Shown here piece by piece: positions 4,471 to 52,433 of a stretch of 64,000 nucleotides of DNA. The translations under genes were made by a program, and so were the position numbers. The notes below the pieces were generated by a model, which ran no database searches, was not told the DNA's origin, and saw nothing but the letters and a program-made list of their open reading frames with translations. The DNA is from a phage. The DNA lies in the sequence record PZ379176.1, one strand, 5' to 3'. How positions within the stretch are numbered: the first letter of the stretch is position 1; every line of letters begins with the position of its first letter.

Positions 4471-4479
4471 TAATGTATA
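4471..4479 (+). promoter_or_regulatory. TAATGTATA motif (candidate phage-specific promoter element)
   Basis: Exact 9-mer also found upstream of genes at 36225, 42593 and on the minus strand at 52425-52433. Confidence 0.35.
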
Positions 4480-4579: not shown

Positions 4580-4608
4580 TTGACACCGAAAACAGCCTGA
4601 TATATAGT
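4580..4608 (+). promoter_or_regulatory. sigma70-like promoter (TTGACA-N17-TATAGT)
   Basis: Near-consensus -35 and -10 hexamers with 17-nt spacer, inside a 2-kb ORF-poor region. Confidence 0.6.
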
Positions 4609-7888: not shown

Positions 7889-8332
7889 GTGGCTAAATCT
7901 AAAATCAGCATGAAGGGCGGGCGTTGTTTTGCTATCTCTGAACTAGAGAAAGAGAAACCGAAGGCAACTAATCACGTTAGTAAGCGTAGTTTAAAACGCC
8001 GTGCTGCAAAGGCTGAGGCTGAATCCCATGTTCCTTCCAGTGTGGCAAAACGTGTAGGCCATCGTGTCCATCGTGCTGATGCGTTGTTGTTAGCTGATCA
8101 TAAACGTTCTTTGTTACAGAGCGGGGGCGCTAAAACAGAAGAAGAGAAGAAGTTAGAAATCTTCTGTAATGGTCGCACCCGTGGTAAACAGAAGTTTAAG
8201 GGTAGCACGAAAGACCCTCAGGCATTCCCTAAGACAAGCCAGTGTGCACCTGATGTTTTCTACGCAGATAGTAAACACAAGTGGGGCGTTGAGAAATACA
8301 TTGACCCCATCAAAGAGGCAAGGGTTAAGTAG
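7889..8332 (+). CDS. hypothetical basic protein (147 aa)
   Basis: ORF track; Lys/Arg-rich; GTG start. Confidence 0.45.
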   Translation: MAKSKISMKGGRCFAISELEKEKPKATNHVSKRSLKRRAAKAEAESHVPSSVAKRVGHRVHRADALLLADHKRSLLQSGGAKTEEEKKLEIFCNGRTRGKQKFKGSTKDPQAFPKTSQCAPDVFYADSKHKWGVEKYIDPIKEARVK

Positions 8333-8413
8333 TAGGAATATAGCCCCCTCTTTTAGTACTATGACGCTCTTTCTGTAGCGTCGTGCCCTCTCCCCATTTG
8401 AAGCTTCTGCATA

Positions 8414-8435
8414 GCCGCCTTTGGGCGGCTTTTTG
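8414..8435 (+). terminator. rho-independent terminator
   Basis: GCCGCC-TTTG-GGCGGC then TTTTT. Confidence 0.6.
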
Positions 8436-8442
8436 CGTTACC

Positions 8443-8466
8443 GCCTCCTTAATTGGAGGCTTTTTT
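8443..8466 (+). terminator. rho-independent terminator (second of tandem pair)
   Basis: GCCTCC-ttaatt-GGAGGC then TTTTTT. Confidence 0.6.
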
Positions 8467-8492
8467 GTATCTATTATATAGGAAACCATGAA

Positions 8493-9305
8493 ATGAAAGC
8501 ATTTGCATTGTCAGCTATTCTAGTTTTATCTGCCATTAGTGCCCCATCCTTTGCTCATTCTGACAAATGCTCACACTCTAAACAGTGTGAAGTCCAGCAG
8601 GGGCCGAAAGGTGATAAAGGAGAACAGGGTATTCAAGGCGAACAAGGTCCGAAAGGTGACAAGGGTGATCGCGGAGAGCAGGGCTTAAAAGGTGATACTG
8701 GATCGGCTGGCATCAATGGTAAAGATGGCATCAATGGTAAAGATGGCATTGATGGTAAAGATGGCATTGATGGTAAAGATGGCATCAATGGTAAAGATGG
8801 CATCAATGGTAAAGATGGCATTGATGGTAAAGATGGCATTGATGGTAAAGATGGCGCTCAAGGTGAAAAAGGTGATTCTGGTGCAGATGGTAAGAAAGGC
8901 GAAACTGGCCTAACTGGTGCAGCAGGTTTGAATGGCGTTGACGGATTAAATGGCAAAAATGGTAAAGATGCAGATATGTCTGCCGTTAATGCTAACGCCA
9001 AATCTATCAAAGCTCTGGAACAATCCACCAACAAACGTTTTGCTTCTTTGCAAAAACAAGTAGACCGTAACCGTGATCATGCCTCTGCTGGTATTTCTGG
9101 CGTGGCTGCAATGGCTAACATCCCGCAAGTAAGTCAAGGATCTGCTTTCTCTGTTGGTGCTGGGGTAGGTGCTTACGATGGTGAATCTGCTCTTGCTATT
9201 GGTGTTAGTGCTCGTTTCAATGAAAACGTAGTAACTAAAGCATCAGTGGCAATGACTTCAGAGAGTGACGCTGTTCTGGGCGCTGGTGTAAGTTACGAGT
9301 GGTAA
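8493..9305 (+). CDS. secreted collagen-like repeat protein with YadA-like C-terminal anchor
   Basis: Signal-like N-terminus MKAFALSAILVLSAISAPSFA; long Gly-X-Y tract (GPKGDKGEQG...GINGKDGIDGKDG...); C-terminus ends GAGVSYEW, resembling trimeric-autotransporter anchors. Confidence 0.7.
   Translation: MKAFALSAILVLSAISAPSFAHSDKCSHSKQCEVQQGPKGDKGEQGIQGEQGPKGDKGDRGEQGLKGDTGSAGINGKDGINGKDGIDGKDGIDGKDGINGKDGINGKDGIDGKDGIDGKDGAQGEKGDSGADGKKGETGLTGAAGLNGVDGLNGKNGKDADMSAVNANAKSIKALEQSTNKRFASLQKQVDRNRDHASAGISGVAAMANIPQVSQGSAFSVGAGVGAYDGESALAIGVSARFNENVVTKASVAMTSESDAVLGAGVSYEW
8709..8852 (+). repeat. eight tandem 18-nt repeats (GGCAT[C/T][A/G]ATGGTAAAGAT) inside the collagen-like gene
   Basis: Direct reading: units alternate ATCAAT and ATTGAT in pairs, encoding GINGKD/GIDGKD. 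Confidence 0.9.
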
Positions 9306-9311
9306 GATAGT

Positions 9312-9338
9312 GCCTCTCCCGAAAGGGAGGGGTGTTTC
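9312..9338 (+). terminator. rho-independent terminator
   Basis: CCTCTCCC-gaaa-GGGAGGGG then TGTTTCT. Confidence 0.55.
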
Positions 9339-9415
9339 TATAAGCATCTTTTCGAGGGTGTTTATTGAAACAACAAAACAGGAGGTAGCAAGTTCTGATA
9401 ACAACGGCACAGCTA

Positions 9416-9805
9416 ATGTTGACATTGACTATTTATTATGAGGCAGGGAATCAGCCAACCGCATGTAAGGCTTTAGTTGCGGATACCGTGATAAATAGAA
9501 TGGCCCAACGAAAACTGACCGCTGAACAGGTGATAAGACAAAAGAACCAGTTTGAGTGGATTCCGGTACTATTAAAACAGGAGAAACCTTATAAACGTTA
9601 TGTAAAGCTGATTCGTGATAAAAATCCGATGACTAAGCAAGCCATTGGAGAAAGCGAGCGACTTGCTAAACGTGCCCTTAAGAAGAATTATGTTCCGCTG
9701 TACAGTGGGACTTACTTTCAGAGTAAGAGCGAAGGGGTGCCAAAATGGTATGCCAATCCTATGTATTGTGGTGATTTAGTGTTCGATAATAGCTCTAGGG
9801 AATAA
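9416..9805 (+). CDS. SleB/CwlJ-like cell-wall hydrolase domain protein
   Basis: Motif IYYEAGNQ...ACKALVADTVINRM...QFEW, as in the SleB-type hydrolase family; start uncertain. Confidence 0.5.
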   Translation: MLTLTIYYEAGNQPTACKALVADTVINRMAQRKLTAEQVIRQKNQFEWIPVLLKQEKPYKRYVKLIRDKNPMTKQAIGESERLAKRALKKNYVPLYSGTYFQSKSEGVPKWYANPMYCGDLVFDNSSRE

Positions 9806-10005
9806 TCACTAGTGCCAGATTTGACAAACTAAATTCCTTTATAAACCAACCACTTAGTAAATTTATTGAAAAAGATGGCAGTATTCTGGGACTATGGGTA
9901 ATGCTCTGTATATAGACCCTTTGAAAATTTCTTAGAAAATAAGTTTACTAAATATAACTTACTTAAATAATATTACTTTTAATCTCTGATAAAAGGGTAA
10001 ATAAT

Positions 10006-10302
10006 ATGACTTTAGAAGTATATAAATTCCTTTTTGTAAGCTGTTTAACTATCAGCGTTCTAGGATTTATTATTCTCAGAAACAAAGCAGCAAGCTGGGA
10101 GAGAATGTATAAATCCCTAGTTCGAGTGGATGAGATGTATAATGAGAAAGTTAAAGTAACACTTAACGATCTTATTATGCAAGTAGAGGACAGAAACAAG
10201 CGTCTTCAGAACCTCAACCACGAAGTGTTACGCCTTGCTCGTGCTAATGAAGACTTGCGAGTGGCTATTGCTAAACAGCAGGAGATTAACAATGAAGCAT
10301 GA
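10006..10302 (+). CDS. membrane-anchored coiled-coil protein
   Basis: N-terminal TM helix then heptad-like region. Confidence 0.5.
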   Translation: MTLEVYKFLFVSCLTISVLGFIILRNKAASWERMYKSLVRVDEMYNEKVKVTLNDLIMQVEDRNKRLQNLNHEVLRLARANEDLRVAIAKQQEINNEA

Positions 10303-10549
10303 TATTAATACAGCCCCTGTAGTCAAGCAACTGAAAGACCTGAAGGTGGGGAGTGTTTTTGAAACTGTTCCACCTAAAAATAAAATATATCTTACAGTAA
10401 AGCTAGATTCCTCAACCGTTTATTCAGCTAGTTGGAAGCCTGACGAAAGAGTAGTAGTAGATCTCACTTCGGATAGAATAACAATGTTGAGAAAAGATAC
10501 TGTTGTTCAGGTAGTTGATAATGCTCGACTTACCAATAAGGTGGATTAA
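10292..10549 (+). CDS. small paralog-family protein (member 1)
   Basis: About 80 aa; shared pattern L-x-x-L-K-x-G-[DS]-V-F with 11 other ORFs. Confidence 0.5.
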   Translation: MKHDINTAPVVKQLKDLKVGSVFETVPPKNKIYLTVKLDSSTVYSASWKPDERVVVDLTSDRITMLRKDTVVQVVDNARLTNKVD

Positions 10550-10551
10550 AG

Positions 10552-10788
10552 ATGAAAGTTAATATTAAATCCGATCGTACAATGCTTCGCTTAAATAACA
10601 TGAAGCCGGGCGTTCTATTTGAGCGTAAAGACTCTCTTTATATTAGAACCGACACACTATACGCAGATAACTATGTGAACTGTGTTGATGTGGTAACTGG
10701 AAAGCTCATGCCTTTTAAACGGGATGAAGTCTGCCAAGTACGTAGTGATCTTCACATAACCAACATAGAGGCTAAAGATGAAGATTGA
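10552..10788 (+). CDS. small paralog-family protein (member 2)
   Basis: Same family pattern; tightly packed. Confidence 0.5.
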   Translation: MKVNIKSDRTMLRLNNMKPGVLFERKDSLYIRTDTLYADNYVNCVDVVTGKLMPFKRDEVCQVRSDLHITNIEAKDED

Positions 10789-11029
10789 TCTTGAGATGAA
10801 AGCTAAAGAATTGTGTGTGGGTGATTTGAAACTTGGTGATGTATTCCAAGTTAAGGCAACATGTATTGATTATTACATGATCGTTCAGTTATATACACCA
10901 CATGTGTCAGAGACTGATCTTCGGAATGGTTGTGTAGTGCTCAGTTTAAGCACCAATCAAGTAATGAAGCTAGATTCAAACTTACCTGTTTCAGTTATCC
11001 ATGATGCAGTAATTACCAATCGGAAGTGA
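10778..11029 (+). CDS. small paralog-family protein (member 3)
   Basis: LKLGDVFQVK motif. Confidence 0.5.
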   Translation: MKIDLEMKAKELCVGDLKLGDVFQVKATCIDYYMIVQLYTPHVSETDLRNGCVVLSLSTNQVMKLDSNLPVSVIHDAVITNRK

Positions 11030-11244
11030 ATATGAACATTGAAAAGAAGGTTGTTGACGAGGCTGTTCAGTTACGATCTCTTGAAACACATGATGTATTT
11101 GTGTGGGGAGGCAGTCTGTTTCAGAAATCTGCTTATGCTGTAGAGGGCGGGGTTCGTTGTTTTAATATCTTCAACAATGAGATGCAAATCCTTCCTAACT
11201 TCGCTCATGTTAATAAACTTATCCACCTTTCTATATATCAATAA
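11026..11244 (+). CDS. small paralog-family protein (member 4)
   Basis: LETHDVFVWGG motif; ATGA overlap. Confidence 0.5.
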   Translation: MNMNIEKKVVDEAVQLRSLETHDVFVWGGSLFQKSAYAVEGGVRCFNIFNNEMQILPNFAHVNKLIHLSIYQ

Positions 11245-11254
11245 GGGCAATTAG

Positions 11255-11473
11255 ATGGAAATTAAAGTAGTTGATTATCCTAAATATGCAAATGCAGAGG
11301 ACGTTAAAGGTGGTGATGTTTTCTCTTATGATAAACGTTTCTGGCTGATGCTAGAAGATAAAACCCCTGATGGTTTGTGTAAGGCTGCTAACTTGAGCAG
11401 TGGTTCTGTTGAAGTCTTCGGTCTATCAACCACTGTTATGCCACGACCTGATCTGTGTTTATCCCAAAAGTAA
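11255..11473 (+). CDS. small paralog-family protein (member 5)
   Basis: VKGGDVFSYDKRFWL motif. Confidence 0.5.
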   Translation: MEIKVVDYPKYANAEDVKGGDVFSYDKRFWLMLEDKTPDGLCKAANLSSGSVEVFGLSTTVMPRPDLCLSQK

Positions 11474-11831
11474 CACCGACTTATAGCCCTTGTGTTTATC
11501 AGAGGGCTATGTGAGGGTGTTCCTCATTAACTTATTAATTCAGGCATATGCCACACCGCTAGGGAGAGCTTGCTCGAACATCCGGTGTTAGACTAAAACC
11601 TGTTAATTTTCGAAAGACTTTCCGATATGTAGGGGTACGTATTGGTTTGGGATTCAGGAGACTTCCTAGGGGTAGGAAGTCTTCACCAGTTGGAATAAGA
11701 GATAGCTCTAGAACCTGAACTCTTAGGCAGAGAAGGTCGGCAATGAGTACGCGGTCAGAATTAGCCTCCTGACTAGGGCTATCCCTTATATCAACTGGCA
11801 ATAATGCCTCCACTAACAAAGAGAGATAGGT

Positions 11832-11972
11832 ATGAAAGTATCAACCAAACGTATGAACCGCCCTGAACGTATGGATGCAGTAGCTAATGGTGCTCTGAAA
11901 CTGGAAGGCTTTTGGATTCATGCAATGTCAGCCATCCGTAACAAGCAAGGTAATTGGACGTATAACAGTTAA
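11832..11972 (+). CDS. hypothetical small protein (46 aa)
   Basis: ATG with SD-like GAGAGATAGG; followed by a terminator; below ORF-track size cut-off. Confidence 0.3.
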   Translation: MKVSTKRMNRPERMDAVANGALKLEGFWIHAMSAIRNKQGNWTYNS

Positions 11973-11984
11973 CAAATAAAGAGA

Positions 11985-12014
11985 GGCTGCCTTCGGGCGG
12001 CCTTTGTTGTTTTA
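11985..12014 (+). terminator. rho-independent terminator
   Basis: GGCTGCC-ttcg-GGCGGCC then TTTGTTGTTTT; same type as 41053. Confidence 0.6.
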
Positions 12015-12057
12015 ATTAAGGGACAACTCTTACTTAAACTAACAAGAGGAAGCTAAA

Positions 12058-12234
12058 ATGTCTAAGCAAACAATCAAACATACGCAATCTGGTTACTCTT
12101 ATGTCAACTCTCCTTGCTGCGGTGCTCGTATTAATCTGGTTAAGGAAGAGGTTCGTATCGTTCAGCGTGGCGCTACTGTTGTTCGTTCATGCTGTGTCTG
12201 TGGTAATGATATTTTTATCAAAGGTAAAGTATGA
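12058..12234 (+). CDS. small zinc-ribbon-like protein (58 aa)
   Basis: SD AAGAGGAAG; Cys pairs CC...CCVC; ATGA overlap with next gene. Confidence 0.4.
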   Translation: MSKQTIKHTQSGYSYVNSPCCGARINLVKEEVRIVQRGATVVRSCCVCGNDIFIKGKV

Positions 12235-12455
12235 TTATCGTTCGCTCTGAGCCTAAAGATAACACTTTTGGTAGCCTCCGTAATGGTGATGTGTTCTCTC
12301 TAGAGATAGATGGGGATACAAAACCTCCTTTATATATGAAGGTTATGCACAGACATGCTATCTGTATAAATAATCCTGAAACAAGATTTACGTTTGACAG
12401 AAGTTGTCCTGTCAAATTTTATCAAGCTACCCTAAACGTTAGGAGAGTAGGATGA
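12231..12455 (+). CDS. small paralog-family protein (member 6)
   Basis: LRNGDVFSLE motif. Confidence 0.5.
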   Translation: MIIVRSEPKDNTFGSLRNGDVFSLEIDGDTKPPLYMKVMHRHAICINNPETRFTFDRSCPVKFYQATLNVRRVG

Positions 12456-12703
12456 AAAACTTCCAAGCTGCACCAATAACTAAAGTGATTGCAGTTAATG
12501 ATGTGATGATGGCTGTTCCTCTGAACACTCGTTATATTGCAATTGACAAGATGGGATATGTATGGGCTTGGAAGATCAAGCCTAGTTATAACGCACTGTT
12601 TGATGAGTTTGTTTGTACTGGTACTTACAGTCCTACATTCTTGGGTTTGTTTAGTGAGTTTGATGGTCAGTATAAAATCATCACACTCCCTGCTTGTGCT
12701 TGA
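12452..12703 (+). CDS. small hypothetical protein (possible divergent family member)
   Basis: ORF track; ATGA overlap. Confidence 0.45.
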   Translation: MKNFQAAPITKVIAVNDVMMAVPLNTRYIAIDKMGYVWAWKIKPSYNALFDEFVCTGTYSPTFLGLFSEFDGQYKIITLPACA

Positions 12704-12710
12704 GGTTATT

Positions 12711-12875
12711 ATGTTCAAGTGGTTTAAACGTTTCTTCCATCTCCATGATTGGGAGACAATAAAAGAAGTTCGTTTACACATATATAATGAGATTGGTCAA
12801 ATAGAAGACACAGGTACTCGTTATATACTTCGATGTAAAACATGTGGTCATATCACCAAGCGAGATATGATCTAA
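12711..12875 (+). CDS. hypothetical small protein (54 aa) with C-terminal CxxC
   Basis: ATG at 12711 after GAGG; track ORF 12537 starts in an overlapped frame. Confidence 0.35.
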   Translation: MFKWFKRFFHLHDWETIKEVRLHIYNEIGQIEDTGTRYILRCKTCGHITKRDMI

Positions 12876-12883
12876 ATAATTCT

Positions 12884-12959
12884 GCGCTCTTAGCTCAATG
12901 GATAGAGCAGTAGCCTTCTAAGCTATTGGTTACAGGTTCGAGTCCTGTAGGGCGCACCA
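12884..12959 (+). tRNA. tRNA-Arg (anticodon UCU), CCA encoded
   Basis: Manual cloverleaf: acceptor GCGCTCT/AGGGCGC, D-arm GCTC/GAGC, anticodon loop CTTCTAA, T-arm ACAGG-TTCGAGT-CCTGT, discriminator A + CCA. Confidence 0.85.
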
Positions 12960-13053
12960 CATTTAGGGCTAGTATGGGTGCGGCACCAGAGTTAGTGTAT
13001 CCCTGTTGAGGCAAGTGCTTTTATAACAGTGGGAATTACTTTCTTAGTGAGCT

Positions 13054-13080
13054 TCTGGTTCGATTCCAGATAGTCCACCA
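13054..13080 (+). other. tRNA-like T-arm plus 3-prime acceptor-like sequence without a foldable 5-prime half
   Basis: TCTGG-TTCGATT-CCAGA then TAGTCCACCA; no matching acceptor, D or anticodon arm found upstream. Confidence 0.25.
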
Positions 13081-13099
13081 AATCTAATAGGAGGTAATT

Positions 13100-13399
13100 A
13101 TGAGTTGGGGTGGTGTAATATCCTTAATCTGTATCTTCCTTGTCTGCATAGCCCTTACAGGCTGCGTACAGAGCCGTCCTGATGGATGGTGTGCAGTAGC
13201 AGTGGAAGGTGTTTGTGTTTCTCGCTGGTATAAGGGTGAGAAGATTCCTTCTGGTGAAATTGATATGCGATGGAACGGAGCAACCTGTTCTAATGCTAAC
13301 CCTTCTATCAACGAAGAGAAGTCTACGCCAGACAATGTTGTGATTGATACAGCGTTGTGGTGTGGTGGCTCTGTAACAACAACCGGTAAGGAGTGGTGA
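13100..13399 (+). CDS. predicted lipoprotein
   Basis: SD AGGAGG; signal peptide ending in lipobox-like LTGC (MSWGGVISLICIFLVCIALTGCVQS). Confidence 0.6.
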   Translation: MSWGGVISLICIFLVCIALTGCVQSRPDGWCAVAVEGVCVSRWYKGEKIPSGEIDMRWNGATCSNANPSINEEKSTPDNVVIDTALWCGGSVTTTGKEW

Positions 13400-13400
13400 T

Positions 13401-13598
13401 ATGAATTACACATCCACAAAGGTGTTAATTGATTCAATTAATAGCTCCTCAGAAGCTGTACAGGAGCGTTTAATACAAGATGTTAGCAATGACATTAAGT
13501 TCTTTGTTAAGAGCCGCCTGTTAGGTTCTAAGGCTTATTACAGAGCTAAAGCAGAGCTTACAAAGAGGGTGTTTCTTTTACATGGTTTGGTATATTAA
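13401..13598 (+). CDS. hypothetical small protein
   Basis: ORF track; starts 2 nt after previous stop. Confidence 0.4.
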   Translation: MNYTSTKVLIDSINSSSEAVQERLIQDVSNDIKFFVKSRLLGSKAYYRAKAELTKRVFLLHGLVY

Positions 13599-13607
13599 GG
13601 AACTTAT

Positions 13608-13829
13608 ATGAAACTAGACTCTAAGCAGTCACTTAAAACCGTTGAGCTGTCCACGCTGCCAAACGGAAGTATTTTTGGTCATGATAAACACTTCTGGATT
13701 AAAACAGACATCATAGACGATGGATATATCACCTGTGTCAATCTTTGGAACGGTTCAGTGGATGGTTATCGCCCTAGCGCAAAGGTAGTCCCTCAGCCTG
13801 ATGCTAAGGCTGTAGGTTTAGTTTACTAA
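13608..13829 (+). CDS. small paralog-family protein (member 7)
   Basis: LPNGSIFGHDKHFWI motif. Confidence 0.5.
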   Translation: MKLDSKQSLKTVELSTLPNGSIFGHDKHFWIKTDIIDDGYITCVNLWNGSVDGYRPSAKVVPQPDAKAVGLVY

Positions 13830-13838
13830 GGAGTTCAT

Positions 13839-14012
13839 ATGAGCTGTTATGGTGGCGGTGAAGTGTGTGATGACGACGACATGGAATCCAATGGTACATG
13901 CCCTGACTGTGGGTGTGAGACATTTGATGGAGTGTCAGTATACCCTGCCTGTAGTTACTCACCAGTGATCTGTAAAACATGTGGAGATCAACCTTGTGAC
14001 CAGTCTTGTTAG
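13839..14012 (+). CDS. small Cys-rich protein (57 aa)
   Basis: SD AAGGAG; 11 Cys; below ORF-track cut-off. Confidence 0.35.
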   Translation: MSCYGGGEVCDDDDMESNGTCPDCGCETFDGVSVYPACSYSPVICKTCGDQPCDQSC

Positions 14013-14013
14013 T

Positions 14014-14238
14014 ATGTTAATAGCCTATCTGATAGGATCAGTAGTATCAGGTGTTCTGATTAAGATTATAGATGTTAAAGGTAATCAGTGTTTCAGAGGT
14101 TGGGATGGTGAGCCAGACCTCGGAAAGATAGCAGCTATGGTTTTCTTGTGGCCTATTATTGCTGTACTATTTATAGCACTCGTATCATGGGCTGCTCTTT
14201 GGGATTTCATCCTTCCTAACAAAAAGTATGAGGACTAA
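14014..14238 (+). CDS. small membrane protein (two hydrophobic helices)
   Basis: ORF track frame; ATG at 14014. Confidence 0.45.
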   Translation: MLIAYLIGSVVSGVLIKIIDVKGNQCFRGWDGEPDLGKIAAMVFLWPIIAVLFIALVSWAALWDFILPNKKYED

Positions 14239-14728
14239 TGACTGAAGAATTTTTAAAGTGGTTTGGTGATACCTTCAAAGAGTATCTATTCTCTCCAGAA
14301 GACTTTGAAGAACTGAAAACCTACACTTGGTTGGCTTGGAGAGATAGCCGACGAGAGATGAATAAGTAATATCGTGAAGGATTCTTACGAGAGTCCTTTG
14401 AGATAGGACTTCAGATCTCCTATCAAACTAACATTCATGTAACTAGCCCATAAGGGCGTTACCCTTTAATAACCCAGCCCACTAAGGGGGCGGGAGTTTA
14501 GTGCTGGATTAGCATAACGCTTATTCCTACAAAGGCAACCGATTGTTAGGTCTTACATGCAATATTAATTAATAGGATAAGGGAGGATTCGTCCCCTCCC
14601 CTATTCATAAACTATTAGGAGAGTACATTAGCTGATTAGCTGTGGAAGGTAGGCCGATATCTACAGCGTGGCCCAGAGCTAGTGTACTCCCCAATAACTT
14701 TAGGGTAAATGTGGAACAACCTTTTAAT

Positions 14729-14874
14729 TACAGGTATAGCTTATGGGACTCAGTAATGCAGAGTCTACGGTAAAGCAGTCGCCCGTGGTCGAATGACCGT
14801 ATGCCCATTGGATGCATTCCTTTGGTGATGGCTAGGGAGTCCGAGCGTAGGTTCGAATCCTACACCTGTAACCA
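14729..14874 (+). tRNA. tRNA-like element with canonical T-arm and ACCA end but about 70 nt of extra internal sequence
   Basis: T-arm GTAGG-TTCGAAT-CCTAC (14847-14863), 3-prime ACCTGTA+A+CCA; only complementary 5-prime strand TACAGGT is at 14729-14735; anticodon not resolved. Confidence 0.35.
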
Positions 14875-14902
14875 AATTGAATAATAGCTAATTGGAGGAT
14901 GT

Positions 14903-15214
14903 ATGAAAGCACGAAGAACTATATGGACTCCGATGCAGATTGAAAATCTTCGGAGACTAATCAAAGAGTACTCGGTTCAAGAAGTTGCTCAGATTATGAA
15001 TGTAACGGAGAATGCAGTTAACGCAGCTTGTACTAAATTCGGAATATCAAGAGCTTCAATCCGAGTTAAATGGTCTGAAGAAGAAGACCAGTTCCTTATC
15101 CGTAATGCTGGGTTCATGTCTATTCAGAGAATGGCTGACATGCTCGGTAGAAGTTATGCTGCTGTACAGAACAGAGCATGTATGCACCTTAACATTAGCC
15201 TCAAACTTAAATAG
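14903..15214 (+). CDS. DNA-binding protein with two helix-turn-helix-like repeats
   Basis: Two W-x-E-E-[LD] repeats each followed by HTH-like segment. Confidence 0.45.
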   Translation: MKARRTIWTPMQIENLRRLIKEYSVQEVAQIMNVTENAVNAACTKFGISRASIRVKWSEEEDQFLIRNAGFMSIQRMADMLGRSYAAVQNRACMHLNISLKLK

Positions 15215-15222
15215 GAATCAAT

Positions 15223-15477
15223 ATGAAAGTTAACGAATTGAACAAAACTATCAAGACTGTGAAACTCCACACTCTGAAGAAGGGCGATACCTTCCGGCTG
15301 GAAGAGAACGGTCCAATTCATATGGTCTGTACTGCGGCATCTACTAATTGGGTAGAAGTTGCACGAGATCGAGTCGTGTGTGTCAGACTGGAAGATGGAC
15401 ACTTAAGTGGCCCCGTTGAGGGCATCTCTGTTATTCCTGTTAAGGTTGAAGCTAACGTTATTAAGGATTCTAAATGA
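15223..15477 (+). CDS. small paralog-family protein (member 8)
   Basis: LKKGDTFRLEENG motif. Confidence 0.5.
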   Translation: MKVNELNKTIKTVKLHTLKKGDTFRLEENGPIHMVCTAASTNWVEVARDRVVCVRLEDGHLSGPVEGISVIPVKVEANVIKDSK

Positions 15478-15725
15478 AGATTACCCACAAGAAAGAAGAA
15501 GTGACCACGATTGATCTCAACTCCCTCCCCAGCGGAGCAGTGTTTAAATTCCCTGAGAGTGCTACTCTCTATGTTAAAGGGTCTGTGTCTGAAAGTCCTA
15601 ATGTAACCGTTAACTCTGATCGAACAATTACTCTTCGTCTATCCGATGGTAACGTAACAGCACCTTCTATCTGGTGCCGAGTTGTTCCTGTATCAGCAGA
15701 ACTTTTGGTGGATAATACGCAATGA
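15474..15725 (+). CDS. small paralog-family protein (member 9)
   Basis: LPSGAVFKFPE motif; ATGA overlap. Confidence 0.5.
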   Translation: MKITHKKEEVTTIDLNSLPSGAVFKFPESATLYVKGSVSESPNVTVNSDRTITLRLSDGNVTAPSIWCRVVPVSAELLVDNTQ

Positions 15726-15967
15726 AAATCATCCCAAAGAAAAAGGATAATACGGTACGATTGGAAACAATCATTCCCGGAAACCCTTTCGTGGTTCAGA
15801 ACGGAAGTGCCTCTCCTCAGTATTACATGAGGGTTGAAAATGCTTCTGGTAACATCCGTATAGCCAGTGGTTGGGTTCCTGTGGTAAACCTTTCCACAGG
15901 TGTGTTATCTGTTAAAGGTCTTGATGATCAGGTAGAAATGATTCGTATGTCAGTGGTTCAGGAGTAG
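15722..15967 (+). CDS. small paralog-family protein (member 10)
   Basis: IPGNPFVVQNG motif; overlap. Confidence 0.5.
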   Translation: MKIIPKKKDNTVRLETIIPGNPFVVQNGSASPQYYMRVENASGNIRIASGWVPVVNLSTGVLSVKGLDDQVEMIRMSVVQE

Positions 15968-16221
15968 TGCATATGAGCATTATTAACATTAAAGTTAAAG
16001 ACAAAGAGGAAAAAATCCTCCGCGTCAGAGATCTAAATATGTCAGATGTGTTCACTCTCCAAGAGTGCCAAAATCAAAAGGTTTATATGATGACAGCTAA
16101 AAGCAGGGGTTGTCAACCTGCTGGAGCTGTTAACCTAGGCACTGGAGAACTACGTGTCATCTCTGGTGATATGGTTGTTGGTGAGAAGTTTATTAAGGCT
16201 GAAATCATCTTAACTTCGTAG
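15967..16221 (+). CDS. small paralog-family protein (member 11)
   Basis: LNMSDVFTLQE motif. Confidence 0.5.
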   Translation: MHMSIINIKVKDKEEKILRVRDLNMSDVFTLQECQNQKVYMMTAKSRGCQPAGAVNLGTGELRVISGDMVVGEKFIKAEIILTS

Positions 16222-16453
16222 GGAAAACAAATGAGACGTAAAGCATATTCTTATGACGATATGATTAACCAGAAAGGCTTCGGTCAACGACAGCCTGACG
16301 GTTCAATTATCTGGTTCGTAAACGGACAGAAAAAGGTAGCTAAATAAGCCCTCTTCTCTCCTCCTTTTAGTACTATGACGCCTCTCTGTGGGCGGCCCGA
16401 TTTGCGTAGGGAATTCCCTCTACGCAGCCATAATTTTTTAAGGAATTTCCCCT

Positions 16454-16687: not shown

Positions 16688-16902
16688 TGATAACACTTGT
16701 GTCTGTAGTTTACAGATTACACTATCGCCTAGATAAAGGAAAATCTTATAAATGCAAGAGTAAGACAGGGAATCTATGCTCTGTAGAGAACAACTCTGGT
16801 CAATGGGTGAATGTTCCTTGTTGCTGGTTCAGGAAAGATTTGACTAGCAAAGAGATTGACGAAATTCTTAGTGATGATTTTGTAAAATCAGGTGATTTTT
16901 AG
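16684..16902 (+). CDS. hypothetical small Cys-containing protein
   Basis: ORF track; ATGA overlap. Confidence 0.4.
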   Translation: MMITLVSVVYRLHYRLDKGKSYKCKSKTGNLCSVENNSGQWVNVPCCWFRKDLTSKEIDEILSDDFVKSGDF

Positions 16903-17137
16903 TTGTAGTAACGCCTATAGCCTTCTTCGGAGGGCTATGTGAGTTATTCTGACTCAACTAACCTAATCTTAATATATTTCCCGTATGGGGCCGATGCTAG
17001 GGAGAGGAACATTCCTCGAACATCCGTCGGATAGATATTTTAAGAGCAGGTTATCCACAGATATTGGGTAATATCTTTTTGTATTTAAAGCTTGACTCTT
17101 TTCGGAGAGTCCTTTTTTAAATTCAACGAGAGGAAAT

Positions 17138-36224: not shown

Positions 36225-36233
36225 TAATGTATA
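36225..36233 (+). promoter_or_regulatory. TAATGTATA motif (candidate phage-specific promoter element)
   Basis: Exact 9-mer 37 nt upstream of ATG 36270. Confidence 0.4.
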
Positions 36234-36269: not shown

Positions 36270-36584
36270 ATGGCAGATCATGTAGGAAAGAGAGATTATG
36301 CACAAGAAAGACGTACCGCAATTGCCCGTGGTGAAACAGGCGTTGGGAGCAAGAGCGGAGATGCTCAGCGCCACCGTGCACGTCGCATCGTTGAAAAGCG
36401 CGATGGAAAAGCTGCTGTCAGAGGTAAAGACGTTGGACACAAACGAGCTGTCAAGTCTGGAGGCTCTAATGCGTCAAGCAACTTACGTGTTGAATCAGTC
36501 AGCTCAAACCGTTCAAACGGCGGCAAAAGTGGTGATCGAGCTGGAAAAGCAGCTGGAGCACGCAAAGGAGCTTTAAGCTCATAA
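36270..36584 (+). CDS. basic low-complexity protein (Arg/Gly/Lys/Ser-rich)
   Basis: Strong SD TAAGGAG 8 nt upstream; AT-rich third positions; an alternative frame (36298-36576) is also open. Confidence 0.4.
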   Translation: MADHVGKRDYAQERRTAIARGETGVGSKSGDAQRHRARRIVEKRDGKAAVRGKDVGHKRAVKSGGSNASSNLRVESVSSNRSNGGKSGDRAGKAAGARKGALSS

Positions 36585-38100: not shown

Positions 38101-39944
38101 GTGAGCAACCCGGACGCTCTTCCATTTTTGACAGAGATGACTGTCGCTGATATAATCTCTAAGCAAGCAAAGCACGGAGTGAGTTTCAACCGAAGAAATG
38201 CTCGGTGGTATGTTCACCTCCTTAAAGAGATTATTGTTAATATTGACAGAGAGTTGATTCCTCTCTTACCTAAGATGAGATTAGATGGCTCTACTTACAT
38301 GAAGCCATTTAAGAAGTCTGGAGCTTTACAGAAGTGGCCTCAAGCCTATTGTGATAGGGTTGGGCTGAAAAGAGAAGATATTGGTGGAGCTTTCACCTGC
38401 GTCGAATACGTAGACTTTGACCCATCGAAAGATGCACGAGTTAAAGAAGCTCTTATGGATGAGGGTTTTCTTCCTCCAGAGTTTAACGTATCTAAGAAGC
38501 CTTGGAATACTTTCGAAATTAAGAAAGATATGCGAAAGTATGGAACATACCAAGCATGGTATACTGCTTGGATGCGAGGTAATGCTAAGCAAAAGCAGAC
38601 AGCCGAGATGGTTGACGCTGATATTAAGAAGTTCTTAGAAAAGCATTTCAGGTTTAAAACTAAGAACTATATGAAGGCTTACGTATTTGGTTTGGGATTA
38701 AACCCGAATCGCCGTAATCCTGTAACGTTTGATGAGATTAAGAAAGCACTAGCCACATCAAACAAGTGGCCTACAGCTCCTACAAACCTCGAGGAGACTC
38801 TTGAAGAAGGGTTAGGGGTGAGCTAGGGAGTGTCGGAAGTTTGCTTAAGAGACGCGTTGTAGCGGCTCACAGGCTAGGTCTTATCAGTGGACTCATAGCA
38901 AAGGAACGCGAAGATGGTAAACTTTCGGCAGAAGCTAACAGCTGCGCTACGCCGACTTTTCGATTCAAACATCGTATCGTGGTTAATATTCCCTCCCGTG
39001 GTCTGTTTGGTCACGAGTGTCGCAGTTTGTTTGAGTCTGACTATAACTCAGACAGTGATCACTCTCGTCCTTTCGTTATTACTAACGTTGTTCCTGATGG
39101 TTGTTATATACGAAAAGGTACTAACGTAATTTACGAGAAAGGTAAGCCGGGGAAGAAAGATAAACCTATAGGTGCTTACAAATATTACATACCCGCTGGT
39201 AAAGAAGTATTCTTAGGGTATGATGGTTCTGGACTTGAACTTCGTATGCTCGCTCACTACCTCATTAAAGAGTGTAGGGATATGCTTGCTGAGGCAATTG
39301 AAGAGAACAACCCAGCTAAGAAAGCTCTGGCAGAACGTGGTTTAGCTTCTGCTATTATGTATCGTGATATTCTCCTTGAAGGTGATATCCACTCCCACAA
39401 CCAGAAACTTGCTGGTCTTCCTACTCGTGACAACGCTAAGACGTTTATCTACGCATTCAACTATGGTGCTGGTGATGCTAAGCTTGGTTCAATTGTAGGT
39501 GGTGGGGCTGACGAAGGTTCAGTGATGCGAGCACGTTTCTTAGCAGAGAACCCATGTATTGCAATCCTCATTGATCGTATGACAGAGAAAGCTGCTCAAG
39601 GATACTTGATTGGAGTTGATGGTCGTAAGATTACAATGAGACGGGATGCCACTGGTAAGGTTATGGTTCATAAAGCCCTTAACACACTCCTGCAATGTGC
39701 TGGTGCTGTTGTTATGAAATATGCTATGATGTTCCTTAACAAGTGGATTGAGAAAGATAAGGTTCGTTGTGCTAAGGTAATTGATATGCACGATGAAGGT
39801 CAATTCTCAGTAAACCGTAATGATGTACAGAAACTCAAAGAGCACACCGAGCTTTGTGTTAAGAAAGCTGGCGAGTATCTGAATATGGAATGTCCTCTGG
39901 CATCTGATTGTCAGATTGGACTTAACTGGATGCATACACACTAA
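38101..39944 (+). CDS. DNA polymerase, polymerase domain (T7 gp5-like palm/fingers), interrupted by a frame break near 38805-38826
   Basis: SKQAKHGVSFN; EDGK...FRFKHRIVVNIPSRGLFGHECRSLF; DGSGLELRMLAHY; LPTRDNAKTFIYAFNYGAGDAKLG; MHDEGQF parallel T7 gp5; GTG start with SD AAAGGAG. Confidence 0.8.
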
Positions 39945-42345: not shown

Positions 42346-42592
42346 TTAATATTCTTTTAAATAGAGAATCAAAGTCCCTAGGAGTCCCTACAACCTAAAT
42401 CAAGGATTCCTTAATTCTCTATTTTTATCTCGCAGGTGGCTCCTGCCCTTCGGTACTTGCAAGGGATTCTGTGAATTGCCCAATATACAAGCCTGCAATA
42501 ACTTTATCAGCTATACAATATATACATTACTAGTGTGTTATATCTACTACCAAAGATACTTATATTATATAGTACTCTTATCGGTATAAGCG

Positions 42593-42601
42593 TAATGTAT
42601 A
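42593..42601 (+). promoter_or_regulatory. TAATGTATA motif (candidate phage-specific promoter element)
   Basis: Exact 9-mer 60 nt upstream of ATG 42661; inverted copy at 42521-42529. Confidence 0.4.
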
Positions 42602-42660
42602 CTATACATAACCGCTCAAAGAGAGCAACAATCTTTCAAATTAAATAAGGAAATTAAAAT

Positions 42661-47964: not shown

Positions 47965-50900
47965 TCACTCCTTAGGTCGAACTCTTACACGGAGTCTCGA
48001 TTGACGCTTACTGCGTTCAAGCTTCTCTGACAATGAGCCACGTTTAATCTTCGGCTTCCCTTCGTCATTAAACTTCTCCAAGAACTGCAAGTACTCAGTA
48101 CGATTCGTTGTCTTGTAAGAAGGAATCTTAATATCAGGGTTCTCTTCAATTACACGTCTCATCTTCGCTACATCATCCCTACCAAGCAACTTACTCTTAG
48201 CCTGTTCAGCTGTAGAACCAAAGATCTTCTCCAGTGCTCTGGATTTGTTACCACCTGCGGAAGAAGCACCAAGTTTAGCAATGGCAGAGTAATCATCAGC
48301 ACTAAACCAAGCTACCGGATTATCACCATACTTCTTCTTGTTTTCAGCAGCAGTCTGCAATGCACGTACAAAGCGACGGTTGTTACCAGCCTTATCTGCA
48401 CCATGAACCCTGTCTAAAACTTCAGCCACACTAGCCAACTCATCCAAGCTCTTCCCACTCAAGAAAGCTTTCTCTACTTTATCAGCAAAAACCTCTTCCT
48501 GTTGTTTAATGCTTTCCAAGATATCAGAATTTGCTTGAGATCTTTCATCATCAGGCAGAGCAGAACGAATCTTCTCCATCTCCAACTCTTCCTCTTGCAG
48601 TTTCTTAATATCAGAGTCAACCTTCTGAGCCTCCTCAATAGCCTTCCTAGTATCCGCATCCAAGTTATCAAGTTTACCTTCAGTATCTCCAGTAACCTTA
48701 ACAATCTCTTTCTCGATAGGAGTCATTGATTCGTACTTCTTAGCGAACTTCTCAACATCAGCCTCAATACGAGAGCGAGCATTCTGATGTTCAGTTGGAG
48801 TCATAGGCTTCTCGAGAAGTGCATAACGGTTATCCATATAGGAACCAGCAAACGCTTCAGCATCCTCTCTAGATATGCCCTTATCTTCCATAGTACGCAT
48901 CAGGCGGCGATGAATATCATCACGTTGACGTTGTACTGCCATAAGATCATTCTCACGCTCTTGGGCCGCTTTAAGCTCTTCACTGCGCTTAACTCTCTTG
49001 TCCACATCAAACTTGCGGTTCATCTCTTCCGCTTGCTCATACATCTTGTTCCACTTAGCCTGACGAGCATCTTCCTCTGCATCAGTTAAACGACGCTGAC
49101 GATCAAGGTAGTCTGACTCGGCGTTATGGATACGTTCAATGTAACTACGGAACTTCTCTGGAGGAACTGGAGAGTTCTTATCGTGGTGAGCAGCCAACTG
49201 TTTCAGTGTACGAGATTCCTGAGCCTCACGAACAGGTTTAGGTAAACCTTCCATCATCTTCTCAATCTCACTCTTCTGAGCTGCAATAGCCTCTAGAGTT
49301 TTACGTTCATTCTCAACAGCAGCTTTAGCATCCGAACGAGCCTGAGCCTTTTTCCTGAGTGTAGCAAGACGTTCTTCACGAGCCTGTAAATGCTTAGCAG
49401 CAGCTTCGTACTGAGAGTTCTTGTTAGCTTTGTTGAAGGCATTCACTTCTCTGTTATAGGTGTTAATAAACCCATCCCAAATATCCTTCATCTGACCAAC
49501 TTCCAAAGCCTCTTCCCTACCAGCCTTCTCTGAAGATTTAAACTTTCCATCTACAAAGTCATTCATCAATTTACGCATAGCGTCTTTCTGAGCAGGACGT
49601 AAAGGTTCTGCATCAATCAAAGTATCAATCTCAGACTGAAGCTCTTTCTTCTGGTCAACCAGCTTAGGAGCATTCTTGTTATCGAAAGCTTTATTCTCTT
49701 CTAGAGCTTGTTGGTACAGTCTATCAAACTCATCTTCACGCTGCTTCTGATACAACCTTTCAGCACGACGTTTCAGACTATCCAAGTTAGTTACGTTCCC
49801 ACCTAAACCTTTCTCTTCAGCACGTAATGCCTTAGTAGCAATGTCTTCTGGCAGACCACGTTCTTTAACCCATTCAGCAAAGTTAGTTCGTACAGTGTTG
49901 TTCTTAGCAGTAGCAATACCTTGCTGAGAAGCCAGCTGGTTACGAGCCATTTCTTCATGACGTTCAGTGTTGATAGCATTATCTTCCTGACGAATACGAC
50001 GCATCAGTTCCTTAGGATCACCTTTATAGGCCAAGAAGTTTTCAGCAGTAGCTTTAGCTTTAGCAGCCTTAGAGTACAGAGAACGAGCAAAACGTTCTGC
50101 ACGATCTTTAGTAGCCTGACGAGCAGCACTAGACATAGCAGCTAAACGTTCTACACCACTTGCCGGTTTAACGTCCTGTACAGCTTCCTTAGGAGCTTTA
50201 GGAGCACGAGCAGGTAATGGCTCAGCTTTGACTGTTGGTTCCTCTACGGTTGGTTCTGGAGCCTGTGCGGCCTCTTCTTGAGCACGTTGCTGTTCCATTG
50301 CACGACGCTCCTCTAGAGGGTTACGAGCAGGGAGAGGTTCAGCCTGTGGAGTTTGTTCGACCGGAGCTTCTTGAGCAGCCAATGCCTCTTCTTCAGCGCG
50401 ACGCTGTTCAGCCTGACGGATAGCGCGTCTTTGCGCAACTAAATCACGAGCTGTAAGAGGAGTTTCTTGAGGAGCAGAAGAAGGAAGATTTTCTTCCGTC
50501 ACAGTACTAGAAGAAGGCTCCCGAACCGGTTCGGTTTCCACGTCATTTTGCGTCTTAAATTTAATGTCATCAACAACTGGTTCTTCTTCCATTTTAGCAC
50601 GAGCTTCATCAGCAGTAGATTTAGCACGAGCAACTTCCAAATCACCACGAGCAAGAGAGCGGATAGCTTCGCTGTTAGATTCTTGTTGCTTAACACGTTG
50701 AGAGCGAGCACGCTGAGAAGAGAAGCGATTCAGAGCATACTTAGCAGCACCAAGAGTGTTCATTACCAGACTAGGTGAAGAAGCCTCACGGAATCCATCA
50801 TCAGTCAGGGAAGTCCAACCACGGTCTTGATTGCTCATGAACTTAGCTGTATTGTTCAGAGTGTAAGCATCTTGAATAGGATTAAAACCTTCAGGCATAC

Positions 50901-52386
50901 CTTTCAGTTTCTTCAACCCACCAATAGCTTTCTTCATCTCTGGAGAAACATTATCAGCCATCTTCTGTAGTTCAGCAGCTTTCTCTACAAAGTTGTTAAA
51001 GTCTTCACCATCACGAGCTTTGAATCGATTTGCTTCATTATAGAAAGTCTTGTAAGCATCAATGAAGTCACGGTCGGCTTGTGTACGATTCTTAATATCA
51101 ATCGGACTACCAGTAAAATCACCAGAAGCTCGGAGAGAGGTTAATTCACGGTCTAGATTATCTAGAACATCTGTAAGAGCTTTCGTGTTGTCTTTGGTGT
51201 AGTCAGCCATTGCATCCTTCATAGCAACAGCCTGCTTCTGGTTGTGCTCGTTATCAGCGAATGCTTTACCACGAGTCTTAGCAGGAGAAGCTAAAGGGTT
51301 GAGGCCCGGAATGTTGGAATGTTCTTTCTGAACGGAAGCAGCTTTCTCAGCACGAGCTTGGTCAGTATTAAGAATACGCTGAGCGGCAGGAGAATCTACA
51401 GCAACAGCATCTGTAATACGGAATCCATTCTCATCCAGAAGGTTCAGAGCAGAAGCAGCGTTAGCAGTTTCAGCTTTAGAGTAAGCTTCTTTCAATTCAT
51501 CAATATTCTTAGCACTACGAATCAGTTCATCATCAGCAGCAATATCGGTCTTCGCATACTCTGGAGTGTTCTTGAAGACAGCAGAATCCGGACGGCTAAT
51601 CAAACCATGAACCCCACCAACTGCACCACCGAATGCAGCACCCATAGCACCTTCTTCGATAGCACCCTCTAATACATTAGCAAAGGTTGTATCATCTCCA
51701 TGCTTGTTCTGAGCTTCAGCAGCACCTACAAGAGCACCACCTTTAGCACCAGCCACTGCGTTAGTAGCAACGTTCTGACCAATACGTCCAAGTGTGGACT
51801 CAGCTGTACCAACAGCGCCCGGAAGGATTCTCTGAGCCGCATAGTTAGCACCACCAACCAAGGCTGCATCTAGAATAGATTTATCTTCCCCCTCTTCAGG
51901 GGTTTGGTCTGCATATGCACGACCTGTCTCACGACCTGCGATGATAGCAGCAGCAGCCAATGGGTTAGCAACAGTCATACCAATATCACCAGCAACGCCA
52001 GCATACTGACCTACAGTTTTACCAATCCCATCCTCAATCTTATCCATACGTTCTTTCAGAAGATTCTGAGAGTTCTCTTGGATACGCTTACCATAACTAG
52101 TTTGTGCTCCAGCTAGATTCTCACCAATCTCAACTAAACCACCAATACCTTTAGCAGCACTAGCTGCAATATTTGCACCACCAGATTGAAGAGCATTTGA
52201 CACACCTTGAGCAAACTCACCTATAGCACCACGTTCTTCTTGTTGTGGTTGTGCTACTGGCTGTTCCTCAGGAATAGAGCCACCTGCTGCCTTATATTGT
52301 TCTCTCATTTGAGCTTGTTGCTCCGGAGAGGCATTCAGATACGCAGGAGCTTTGGAAGCTTCTTCCCACGGTTTAATGTTAGCCAT
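47965..52386 (-). CDS. large internal virion (core/ejection-type) protein, about 1470 aa
   Basis: Gly/Ala-rich hydrophobic N-terminal segments then long Ala/Glu/Lys/Arg coiled-coil; likely start ATG 52386 with SD AGGAG. Confidence 0.55.
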   Translation of the reverse strand: MANIKPWEEASKAPAYLNASPEQQAQMREQYKAAGGSIPEEQPVAQPQQEERGAIGEFAQGVSNALQSGGANIAASAAKGIGGLVEIGENLAGAQTSYGKRIQENSQNLLKERMDKIEDGIGKTVGQYAGVAGDIGMTVANPLAAAAIIAGRETGRAYADQTPEEGEDKSILDAALVGGANYAAQRILPGAVGTAESTLGRIGQNVATNAVAGAKGGALVGAAEAQNKHGDDTTFANVLEGAIEEGAMGAAFGGAVGGVHGLISRPDSAVFKNTPEYAKTDIAADDELIRSAKNIDELKEAYSKAETANAASALNLLDENGFRITDAVAVDSPAAQRILNTDQARAEKAASVQKEHSNIPGLNPLASPAKTRGKAFADNEHNQKQAVAMKDAMADYTKDNTKALTDVLDNLDRELTSLRASGDFTGSPIDIKNRTQADRDFIDAYKTFYNEANRFKARDGEDFNNFVEKAAELQKMADNVSPEMKKAIGGLKKLKGMPEGFNPIQDAYTLNNTAKFMSNQDRGWTSLTDDGFREASSPSLVMNTLGAAKYALNRFSSQRARSQRVKQQESNSEAIRSLARGDLEVARAKSTADEARAKMEEEPVVDDIKFKTQNDVETEPVREPSSSTVTEENLPSSAPQETPLTARDLVAQRRAIRQAEQRRAEEEALAAQEAPVEQTPQAEPLPARNPLEERRAMEQQRAQEEAAQAPEPTVEEPTVKAEPLPARAPKAPKEAVQDVKPASGVERLAAMSSAARQATKDRAERFARSLYSKAAKAKATAENFLAYKGDPKELMRRIRQEDNAINTERHEEMARNQLASQQGIATAKNNTVRTNFAEWVKERGLPEDIATKALRAEEKGLGGNVTNLDSLKRRAERLYQKQREDEFDRLYQQALEENKAFDNKNAPKLVDQKKELQSEIDTLIDAEPLRPAQKDAMRKLMNDFVDGKFKSSEKAGREEALEVGQMKDIWDGFINTYNREVNAFNKANKNSQYEAAAKHLQAREERLATLRKKAQARSDAKAAVENERKTLEAIAAQKSEIEKMMEGLPKPVREAQESRTLKQLAAHHDKNSPVPPEKFRSYIERIHNAESDYLDRQRRLTDAEEDARQAKWNKMYEQAEEMNRKFDVDKRVKRSEELKAAQERENDLMAVQRQRDDIHRRLMRTMEDKGISREDAEAFAGSYMDNRYALLEKPMTPTEHQNARSRIEADVEKFAKKYESMTPIEKEIVKVTGDTEGKLDNLDADTRKAIEEAQKVDSDIKKLQEEELEMEKIRSALPDDERSQANSDILESIKQQEEVFADKVEKAFLSGKSLDELASVAEVLDRVHGADKAGNNRRFVRALQTAAENKKKYGDNPVAWFSADDYSAIAKLGASSAGGNKSRALEKIFGSTAEQAKSKLLGRDDVAKMRRVIEENPDIKIPSYKTTNRTEYLQFLEKFNDEGKPKIKRGSLSEKLERSKRQSRLRVRVRPKE

Positions 52387-52424
52387 AACGTCTCCTTTTA
52401 TAAATAAAAATGTCCTACCCCCTA

Positions 52425-52433
52425 TATACATTA
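52425..52433 (-). promoter_or_regulatory. TAATGTATA motif on minus strand (candidate late promoter element)
   Basis: TATACATTA on plus strand, about 40 nt upstream of ATG 52386. Confidence 0.4.

Follow-up and report, generated by a model that had tools for sequence, protein, structure and literature searches.

What is the function of a 17-nucleotide (nt) sequence that recurs without a single change behind two early genes of a coliphage? The question arises from sequence record PZ379176.1, of which we analysed a stretch of 64,000 nt, hereafter the window. The repeat, TTTTAGTACTATGACGC, is found on the + strand at 8351-8367 and at 16365-16381. It has been known for about 50 years that phage genomes can carry nicks at specific sites, first in T5 and later in the phiKMV- and tf-like phages. 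Our analysis suggests that the repeat is probably recognised by a phage nickase introducing localized single-strand interruptions of the tf/LUZ24 type, three of them in this phage. A nicking-enzyme site appears likelier than a promoter because the sequence at the heart of the repeat, TACTRTGACG, marks one-strand cuts in the packaged DNA of related Pseudomonas phages.

The repeat and its invariant core

The window belongs to a phiEco32-like Kuravirus (subfamily Gordonclarkvirinae). It is 92-99% identical to such coliphages and lies in reverse orientation relative to NC_010324. A 17-mer search of both strands recovered the two exact copies that the initial annotation had located. When up to three mismatches were allowed, a third copy, TTCTAGTACTGTGACGG, appeared on the - strand at 50496-50512 with three mismatches. 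At this tolerance 0.16 matches are expected by chance and none of 100 shuffled sequences gave three, so that the negligible probability of chance recurrence claimed at the outset holds. The third copy lies within a late open reading frame (ORF) of 1488 residues (47965-52431), the homolog of phi32_26. The complete phiEco32 genome also contains exactly three copies of the motif, two of them intergenic and one on the opposite strand in gene 26, the latter corresponding to the third copy of the window. The phiEco32 copies are located at 63,070 and 70,592 on one strand and at 27,941 on the other.

The initial annotation had further suggested searching the genome and its relatives, and it is this comparison that delimits the element. 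Kuravirus relatives retain the 17-mer at both intergenic loci, including those in which the upstream gene differs; in phages WFI101126 and Paul, for instance, an additional small gene is inserted directly upstream of site 1. Kuravirus sites read TTTTAG-TACTATGACGC, with TACTGTGACGC at site 1 of phiEco32. In KBNP1711, the two sites read TTGCAAC-TACTGTGACGT and TTCAAC-TACTGTGACGC, and in IME267 GTCAAC-TACTATGACGC and TTTAGC-TACTATGACGC. Since the flanks vary and the core stays constant across three genera of the subfamily, the invariant part is TACT(A/G)TGACG. The TTTTAG segment (TTCTAG at the third site) and the pyrimidine tracts upstream are genus-specific. In the window, the core is TACTATGACG at 8357-8366 and 16371-16380, and TACTGTGACG at 50506-50497 on the - strand.

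The third site was examined in an alignment of four phages, namely the window phage, KBNP1711, 101114UKE3 (Suseptimavirus) and Bas88. The codons T-ACT-GTG-ACG are retained at four synonymous positions in all four phages, within a region that is only 72-79% identical and whose amino acids are variable. Such synonymous conservation amid a poorly conserved stretch suggests that selection acts on the DNA itself. Overall, the repeat is real and functional, and its description as a conserved signal in the initial annotation agrees with the retention of the core at both loci in three genera.

Correspondence with mapped phage nick sites

In phage tf of Pseudomonas putida, 14 single-strand interruptions, all on one strand and repairable by ligase, were mapped to the consensus 5'-TACT/RTGMC-3' (PMC3517423; Glukhov et al. 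2012). The two nicks that were quantified occur in >90% of the molecules, and the LUZ24-like relatives of tf mostly use TACTATGAC (PMC3517423). Nanopore sequencing of phage Rembedalsseter revealed 13 strand-specific breaks at WACTRTGAC, a motif that is enriched on a single strand in 60 related Pseudomonas phages (PMC11780129). The three sites of the window fit TACT/RTGMC (or WACTRTGAC), the sequences being TACTATGAC at 8357-8365 and 16371-16379, and TACTGTGAC at 50506-50498 on the - strand. In addition, 12 of the 14 tf sites have a G at position 10, so that the phiEco32-type core matches tf sites over ten positions out of ten. The natural A/G variation of this core, at position 5, coincides with the degenerate R of the consensus. 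In tf, point mutations at positions 1, 3 and 4 of the core abolish nicking.

The two phages are also related beyond the motif. Their primase-helicases and their DNA polymerases are each 47% identical, and homology extends to both exonucleases, the terminase, the capsid and tail proteins, a small HNH-like protein, and a cluster comprising a COOH-NH2 ligase, an amidoligase, a glutamine amidotransferase and an ATP-grasp protein. The window phage hence shares with tf a replication module, and the sites are concentrated in the early region in both. Unlike tf and the LUZ24-like phages, which have 9-14 sites, it has an E. coli host and carries three sites on both strands, two of them intergenic with an upstream TTTTAG and a downstream hairpin; moreover, its nicks are predicted from the sequence.

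The frequency of TACTRTGACG was compared with the counts expected from Markov simulations. Three copies were observed in the window against 0.18 expected, and three in phiEco32 against 0.19. The corresponding values are 10 against 0.17 in tf, 11 against 0.30 in Salmonella phage 7-11, with ten copies on one strand, and 5 against 0.20 in Photobacterium phage PhCF1.2, all on one strand. Erwinia phage Pecta, which lies outside the group, has no copy of this 10-mer.

With the shorter motif TACTRTGMC, phage 7-11 (NC_015938) has 13 sites, 12:1 biased towards the coding strand of its early and middle genes. They are concentrated in the early region and include those at 88039, 87012, 86028, 85070, 83748, 79975 and 75918 on the - strand. 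Most have AAC or CAC directly 5', like the sites of KBNP1711 and IME267. We found no prior description of these 7-11 sites in the literature. PhCF1.2 has six such sites, 6:0 on one strand and all with TAC directly 5'. In 7-11, tf and PhCF1.2 the motif lies mostly within genes. The RTG of the nick motif is also the annotated start codon of the next gene at tf_04, tf_15 and tf_41 (tf positions 2103, 5268 and 20795), as well as of the 7-11 gene 83463-83744 (start codon at 83744); there, the predicted cut and the gene start coincide exactly.

The canonical motif is absent from Aeromonas phage LAh_6. A variant of the element, TACGGTGAC, is found there instead, and the most over-represented strand-biased 9-mer of this genome is ACTACGGTG. 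The variant ttacTACGGTGAC, in which a G replaces the T at position 4, just 5' of the predicted cut, occurs in 8 copies against fewer than 1 expected, distributed 6:2 over the strands and including those at 95601, 94310, 91136, 86222, 83486 and 74146 (- strand). These copies show that within one lineage the motif changes as a single unit.

Over-representation and strand bias, which are diagnostic in Rembedalsseter and its 60 relatives, thus form a signature that is also present in 7-11 and PhCF1.2. The published survey took the 250 phages closest to one Pseudomonas phage, and the enriched cluster is described, as we read it, as one of Pseudomonas phages (PMC11780129). The E. coli, Salmonella, Photobacterium and Aeromonas lineages therefore represent an apparent extension. 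The nick sites of the phiKMV-like phages (CGACNNNNNCCTACTCCGG) and of T5 (R/GCGCRGG) are similar in that they are short conserved motifs, mostly on one strand, giving ligatable nicks in virion DNA; their sequences and phage lineages are unrelated.

From these comparisons, we infer that TTTTAGTACTATGACGC is the Kuravirus version of a clade-wide motif, 5'-TACT(A/G)TGACG-3', that would be read by a phage-encoded, site- and strand-specific DNA nickase. The motif-bearing strand of replicated or packaged DNA would be opened between TACT and RTG by a nick that ligase can seal. By analogy with the tf site TACT/RTGMC, the predicted nicks would lie at 8360/8361 and 16374/16375 on the + strand and at 50503/50502 on the - strand. 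Two of them would then interrupt the strand coding for the early genes, each in a spacer between genes, and one the strand coding for the late genes. The genus-specific context, that is, TTTTAG and the hairpin that begins in GACG, may extend the recognition sequence or serve a second role in the spacers; the intergenic copies may, for example, also act at the RNA level, beside the terminators.

Three other leads on the nicks were followed and set aside. An origin in primase recognition was considered, as the complementary strand contains GTC; a T7-type primer start would be 3 nt off the mapped tf nick, and the idea is an inference only. Magill et al. 2017, consulted as a possible link between nicks and local heterogeneity, does not mention nicks. 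Finally, the match coordinates revealed nothing convincing in the way of database records that start at the motif, as might be expected of an assembly footprint of nicks.

A candidate nicking enzyme

The enzyme would most likely be a small HNH-type protein encoded at 36270-36584 on the + strand. This basic protein of 104 residues, the homolog of phi32_58, carries a DH...GG.N...NL...N (HNH/HNN) signature. It is the most conserved of the core proteins compared among phiEco32, tf, 7-11, PhCF1.2 and LAh_6, with 58-69% identity. Across phages of Escherichia, Pseudomonas, Salmonella, Photobacterium and Aeromonas it is thus better conserved than the DNA polymerase. It has no Pfam match, and its family, PHROG 4590, is listed as 'unknown function'. 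An alignment of 40 homologs showed invariant RGETG...RHRARR residues together with (V)DH-x6-GG-x6-NL-x7-N, a spacing that HNH/HNN nucleases typically show; the usual zinc-binding cysteines are missing. An AlphaFold2 model contains the two strands and the helix of the beta-beta-alpha-metal fold, with a predicted local distance difference test score of 70 overall and about 80 in the core. In its predicted beta-beta-alpha-metal core and DH...N...N catalytic pattern, the protein resembles small HNH nicking endonucleases that cut one strand (Gme HNH, 4h9d; GVE2 HNH, 5h0o; I-HmuI, 1u3e).

A promoter element for the phage sigma factor gp36, TAATGTATA, lies directly upstream of the gene at 36225-36233 (+ strand), and gene 58 of phiEco32 likewise has an upstream gp36 promoter (PMC4331800). 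This element implies middle-phase expression of the candidate gene, and the nickase would accordingly be made from a gp36 middle promoter.

Homologs were found in 254 phage records, covering the LUZ24/tf-like, phiEco32-like, 7-11-like and GAP52-like groups as well as Proteus, Aeromonas and Vibrio groups; some of them are annotated as HNH endonucleases. In LAh_6, the ortholog has NLAVRPAS in place of the NLRV(R/E)S-type motif of most relatives, a difference that, judged from the alignment, is a possible specificity change. We propose tentatively, and with rather less than even confidence, that the phi32_58 family might be the nickase of localized nicks across podophages of Pseudomonas, Escherichia, Salmonella, Photobacterium and Aeromonas, co-evolving with a 10-bp site (TACT|RTGACG; TACG|GTGAC in LAh_6). 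No report of an enzyme for the tf-type motif was found in the literature.

An attempt at separating the HNH-like protein from other core genes by phyletic distribution failed. Its homologs occur in the same clade that the DNA polymerase delimits, so that co-occurrence cannot single it out. A T7 endonuclease I-like protein was rejected as the nickase, being present in tf and 7-11 and having no homolog in phiEco32. PhCF1.2 and LAh_6 carry genes annotated as 'endonuclease'.

Local context, competing readings and implications

The copies sit between the homologs of phi32_120 and phi32_119 and those of phi32_94 and phi32_93. Both are inside the early operon transcribed from sigma-70 promoters, the promoter scan placing strong early promoters upstream, at 4580 and 5213 (PMC4281155). 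Copy 1 starts 18 nt past the TAG (8330-8332) that closes the ORF at 7889-8332, the phi32_120 homolog, and copy 2 starts 17 nt past the TAA (16345-16347) that closes the 38-codon phi32_94 homolog. The initial annotation had correctly placed both copies behind stop codons; the gaps are slightly shorter than the 20-35 nt it gave. The CCTC-rich sequence and the hairpins that it described on either side are also present. Pyrimidine-rich tracts, AGCCCCCTC and AGCCCTCTTCTCTCCTCC, precede the copies, and the GACGC at the 3' end of the 17-mer forms the 5' arm of a small hairpin at both intergenic copies. At copy 1, this hairpin is GACGCT-N8-AGCGTC (8363-8382, + strand; DNA fold -5.7 kcal/mol, z = -4.3) and is retained in relatives. 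At copy 2, it is the imperfect GACGCC-N8-GGCGGC (16377-16396, + strand), which in phage WFI101126 is a perfect GACGCC/GGCGTC. Every Gordonclarkvirinae copy is followed by a hairpin in constant register from the G of GACG, with a 3' arm that differs by locus (GACGC/GCGTC, GACGCC/GGCGTC, GACGGAA/TTCCGTC).

In Kuravirus the hairpins at 8363-8382 and 16377-16396 have no T run and hence do not qualify as intrinsic terminators. Separate terminators lie 30-60 nt downstream. Copy 1 is followed by two intrinsic-terminator-like hairpins with T runs (8413-8430 and 8443-8460, + strand), which lie outside the repeat; the counterpart of the first is annotated as a terminator in WFI101126. Copy 2 is followed by one terminator-like hairpin (16402-16427, + strand) with an offset T run at about 16441-16449. 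With small indels, the two loci resemble each other for about 20 nt beyond the 17-mer (GACGC(C)TCT..CTGT..GCG).

Homology between relatives tends to break at the element, which places it on mosaic junctions. Alignments start at window positions 8335-8351 in XT73, LAMP and Ptacy1479, and stop at about 16387 in the Suseptimavirus records. Beyond site 1 and the first terminator, the window (8440-9305, against phiEco32 930-1732) continues with another terminator and with a gene whose product starts like a signal peptide (MKAFALSAILVLSAISAPSFA); the gene at this place in phiEco32 is a different one, 119, encoding an adhesin/tail protein. As the genes of the two phages differ directly 3' of site 1, a variable cassette adjoins the element there.

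Several points weigh against a nickase site. There are only three sites and they are divided over both DNA strands, two on one and one on the other, whereas in tf a single strand carries every nick. Taken by itself, the 9-mer TACTRTGMC shows no enrichment in the window (3 against 1.85 expected), so that it is the 10-mer, together with conservation, that gives significance there. Recognition of 10 bp alone leaves unexplained why the intergenic copies share TTTTAG, a pyrimidine tract and a hairpin, and this hairpin is not general at the sites of tf, 7-11 or PhCF1.2. In addition, all three Gordonclarkvirinae sites are in sense orientation, which is compatible with a role at the RNA level. The HNH-like protein, as seen above, cannot be told apart from other core genes by co-occurrence. 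Finally, the literature that we searched gave no report of physical nicks in any phiEco32-like phage.

The low number of sites and their two-strand distribution would also suit a site that is bound by a conserved phage protein without being nicked here, such as a replication, packaging/ejection or recombination signal, the Pseudomonas nicks then being a lineage-specific consequence. The conservation and clade-wide distribution of the motif are explained equally well on these terms, and the 17-mer contains an 8-bp palindrome, TAGTACTA. This palindrome is broken at site 1 of phiEco32 (TAGTACTG) and absent in other genera. Moreover, the tested sites are nicked in two independent phages (14 of 14 in tf and 13 of 13 in Rembedalsseter), and the best-conserved core protein is a predicted HNH-type nuclease. 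Binding without nicking is therefore rather unlikely. The protein-binding site that the initial annotation had listed nevertheless comes close to the nickase recognition site favoured here.

An element acting in the early polycistronic transcript would account for the sense orientation of all three copies, for the position of both intergenic copies directly between a stop codon and terminator hairpins, and for the constant-register hairpin. The single-stranded UUUUAGUACUAU and the stem-loop would then be cleaved by a processing endonuclease, stabilise the 3' end, or bind a regulator controlling terminator read-through. In a covariance-model search with Rfam 15, nothing matched at either site at E <= 1; the only match was a tRNA-Arg at 12884-12956. 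The invariant part is the 10-mer and not the hairpin, and the motifs of 7-11, tf and PhCF1.2 are mostly intragenic and generally lack one. Site 2 of IME267 has no downstream terminator. In tf, the same 10-mer is a mapped DNA nick site, and since two of these sites are antisense to the local genes, the motif acts there on DNA. We regard a purely RNA-level element as unlikely; nothing specific supports the RNA processing site proposed in the initial annotation. Antitermination of the boxA/nut type was also considered, because the hairpin of site 1 includes a boxA-like CGCTCTTT; this likeness is not kept at site 2 or in other genera. A mini-ORF starting from the internal ATG/GTG of the motif would have no ribosome-binding site and no conserved length, although the motif does provide annotated start codons in tf and 7-11.

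A phage-specific promoter is very improbable, although the initial annotation had counted it among its options. TACTAT could serve as a -10-like element for the sigma-70 or the gp36 holoenzyme, yielding transcripts of about 65 nt that end at the terminators. It matches TATAAT at 4 of 6 positions, including A-11 and T-7, and both copies lie about 65 nt upstream of a T-run terminator. The nick consensus of phiKMV was reportedly mistaken for a promoter at first, a precedent for such confusion. With sigma-70 sites defined by -35/-10 hexamers at 16-18 bp spacing or by an extended -10 TGn, the scan was empty at 8330-8370 and at 16345-16385, and a TG extension is lacking. Transcription would have to start at pyrimidines, site 1 of phiEco32 reads TACTGT, terminators follow directly 3', and the core is mostly intragenic in relatives (PMC11780129).

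A gp36 promoter is defined by a single tAATGTAtA element 6-8 bp upstream of the start site. Such elements are likewise short, conserved, intergenic and few in the same genome; their sequence does not match the repeat, and in phiEco32 the six mapped promoters lie upstream of genes 6, 13, 26, 40, 58 and 68 (PMC8948821, PMC4331800), not of 119 or 93. In the window, TAATGTATA matches at 4471, 36225, 42521, 42593 and 52425, all of them away from the two intergenic sites. The mapped gp47 promoters of 7-11 lie elsewhere than its motif sites, and the 7-11 promoter motifs predicted by Guzina and Djordjevic are unrelated (TGATGT). T7/SP6-like resemblance and reverse-strand promoters were also tried, and neither fits.

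Lastly, a chance or purely historical repeat with no function, for example the remnant of a duplicated intergenic spacer, as the mere two exact copies and their somewhat similar flanks might suggest, is effectively refuted by the conservation pattern: in three genera both loci keep the core between diverging flanks, and the core recurs at a third, intragenic locus, beyond the 0.16 matches expected.

Other features of the window were observed along the way. Four TAATGTATA-like elements are clustered at 42512-42611 (42512-42520, 42521-42529 and 42603-42611 on the - strand, 42593-42601 on the + strand), around which the GC skew flattens; such an arrangement might reflect divergent gp36 promoters. 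The counterpart of the phi32_101-phi32_100 gap, at 14370-14900, is a highly structured-looking region of about 530 nt without an ORF that ends in a tRNA-like T-arm (GGTTCGAATCC near 14850), in which neither ARAGORN nor Rfam called a tRNA or other RNA. At 16900-17130, about 230 nt of intergenic sequence include a stable hairpin (AGCCTTCTTCGGAGGGCT), with a terminator at 17094-17111. Compared with phiEco32, two homopolymer runs of the window have lost one base each, GGGGG to GGGG in the DNA polymerase gene (38805-38823) and CCCCCC to CCCCC in the ATP-grasp gene (about 25297), because of which each gene is divided into two overlapping frames. These deletions are probably sequencing or assembly errors rather than biology.

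If the repeat is indeed a nickase site, the tf-type nick system would reach beyond Pseudomonas phages to the phiEco32-like coliphages, which are abundant and relevant to therapy, as well as to 7-11-like Salmonella, marine and Aeromonas phages. In practice, the sites may give strand-specific breaks in nanopore reads and assemblies, and conserved intergenic repeats in phiEco32-like phages should not be annotated as promoters by default. Kuraviruses would then make an uncommonly simple system for testing the purpose of genome nicks: their host is easy, their sites number three, and the candidate nuclease is one small protein.

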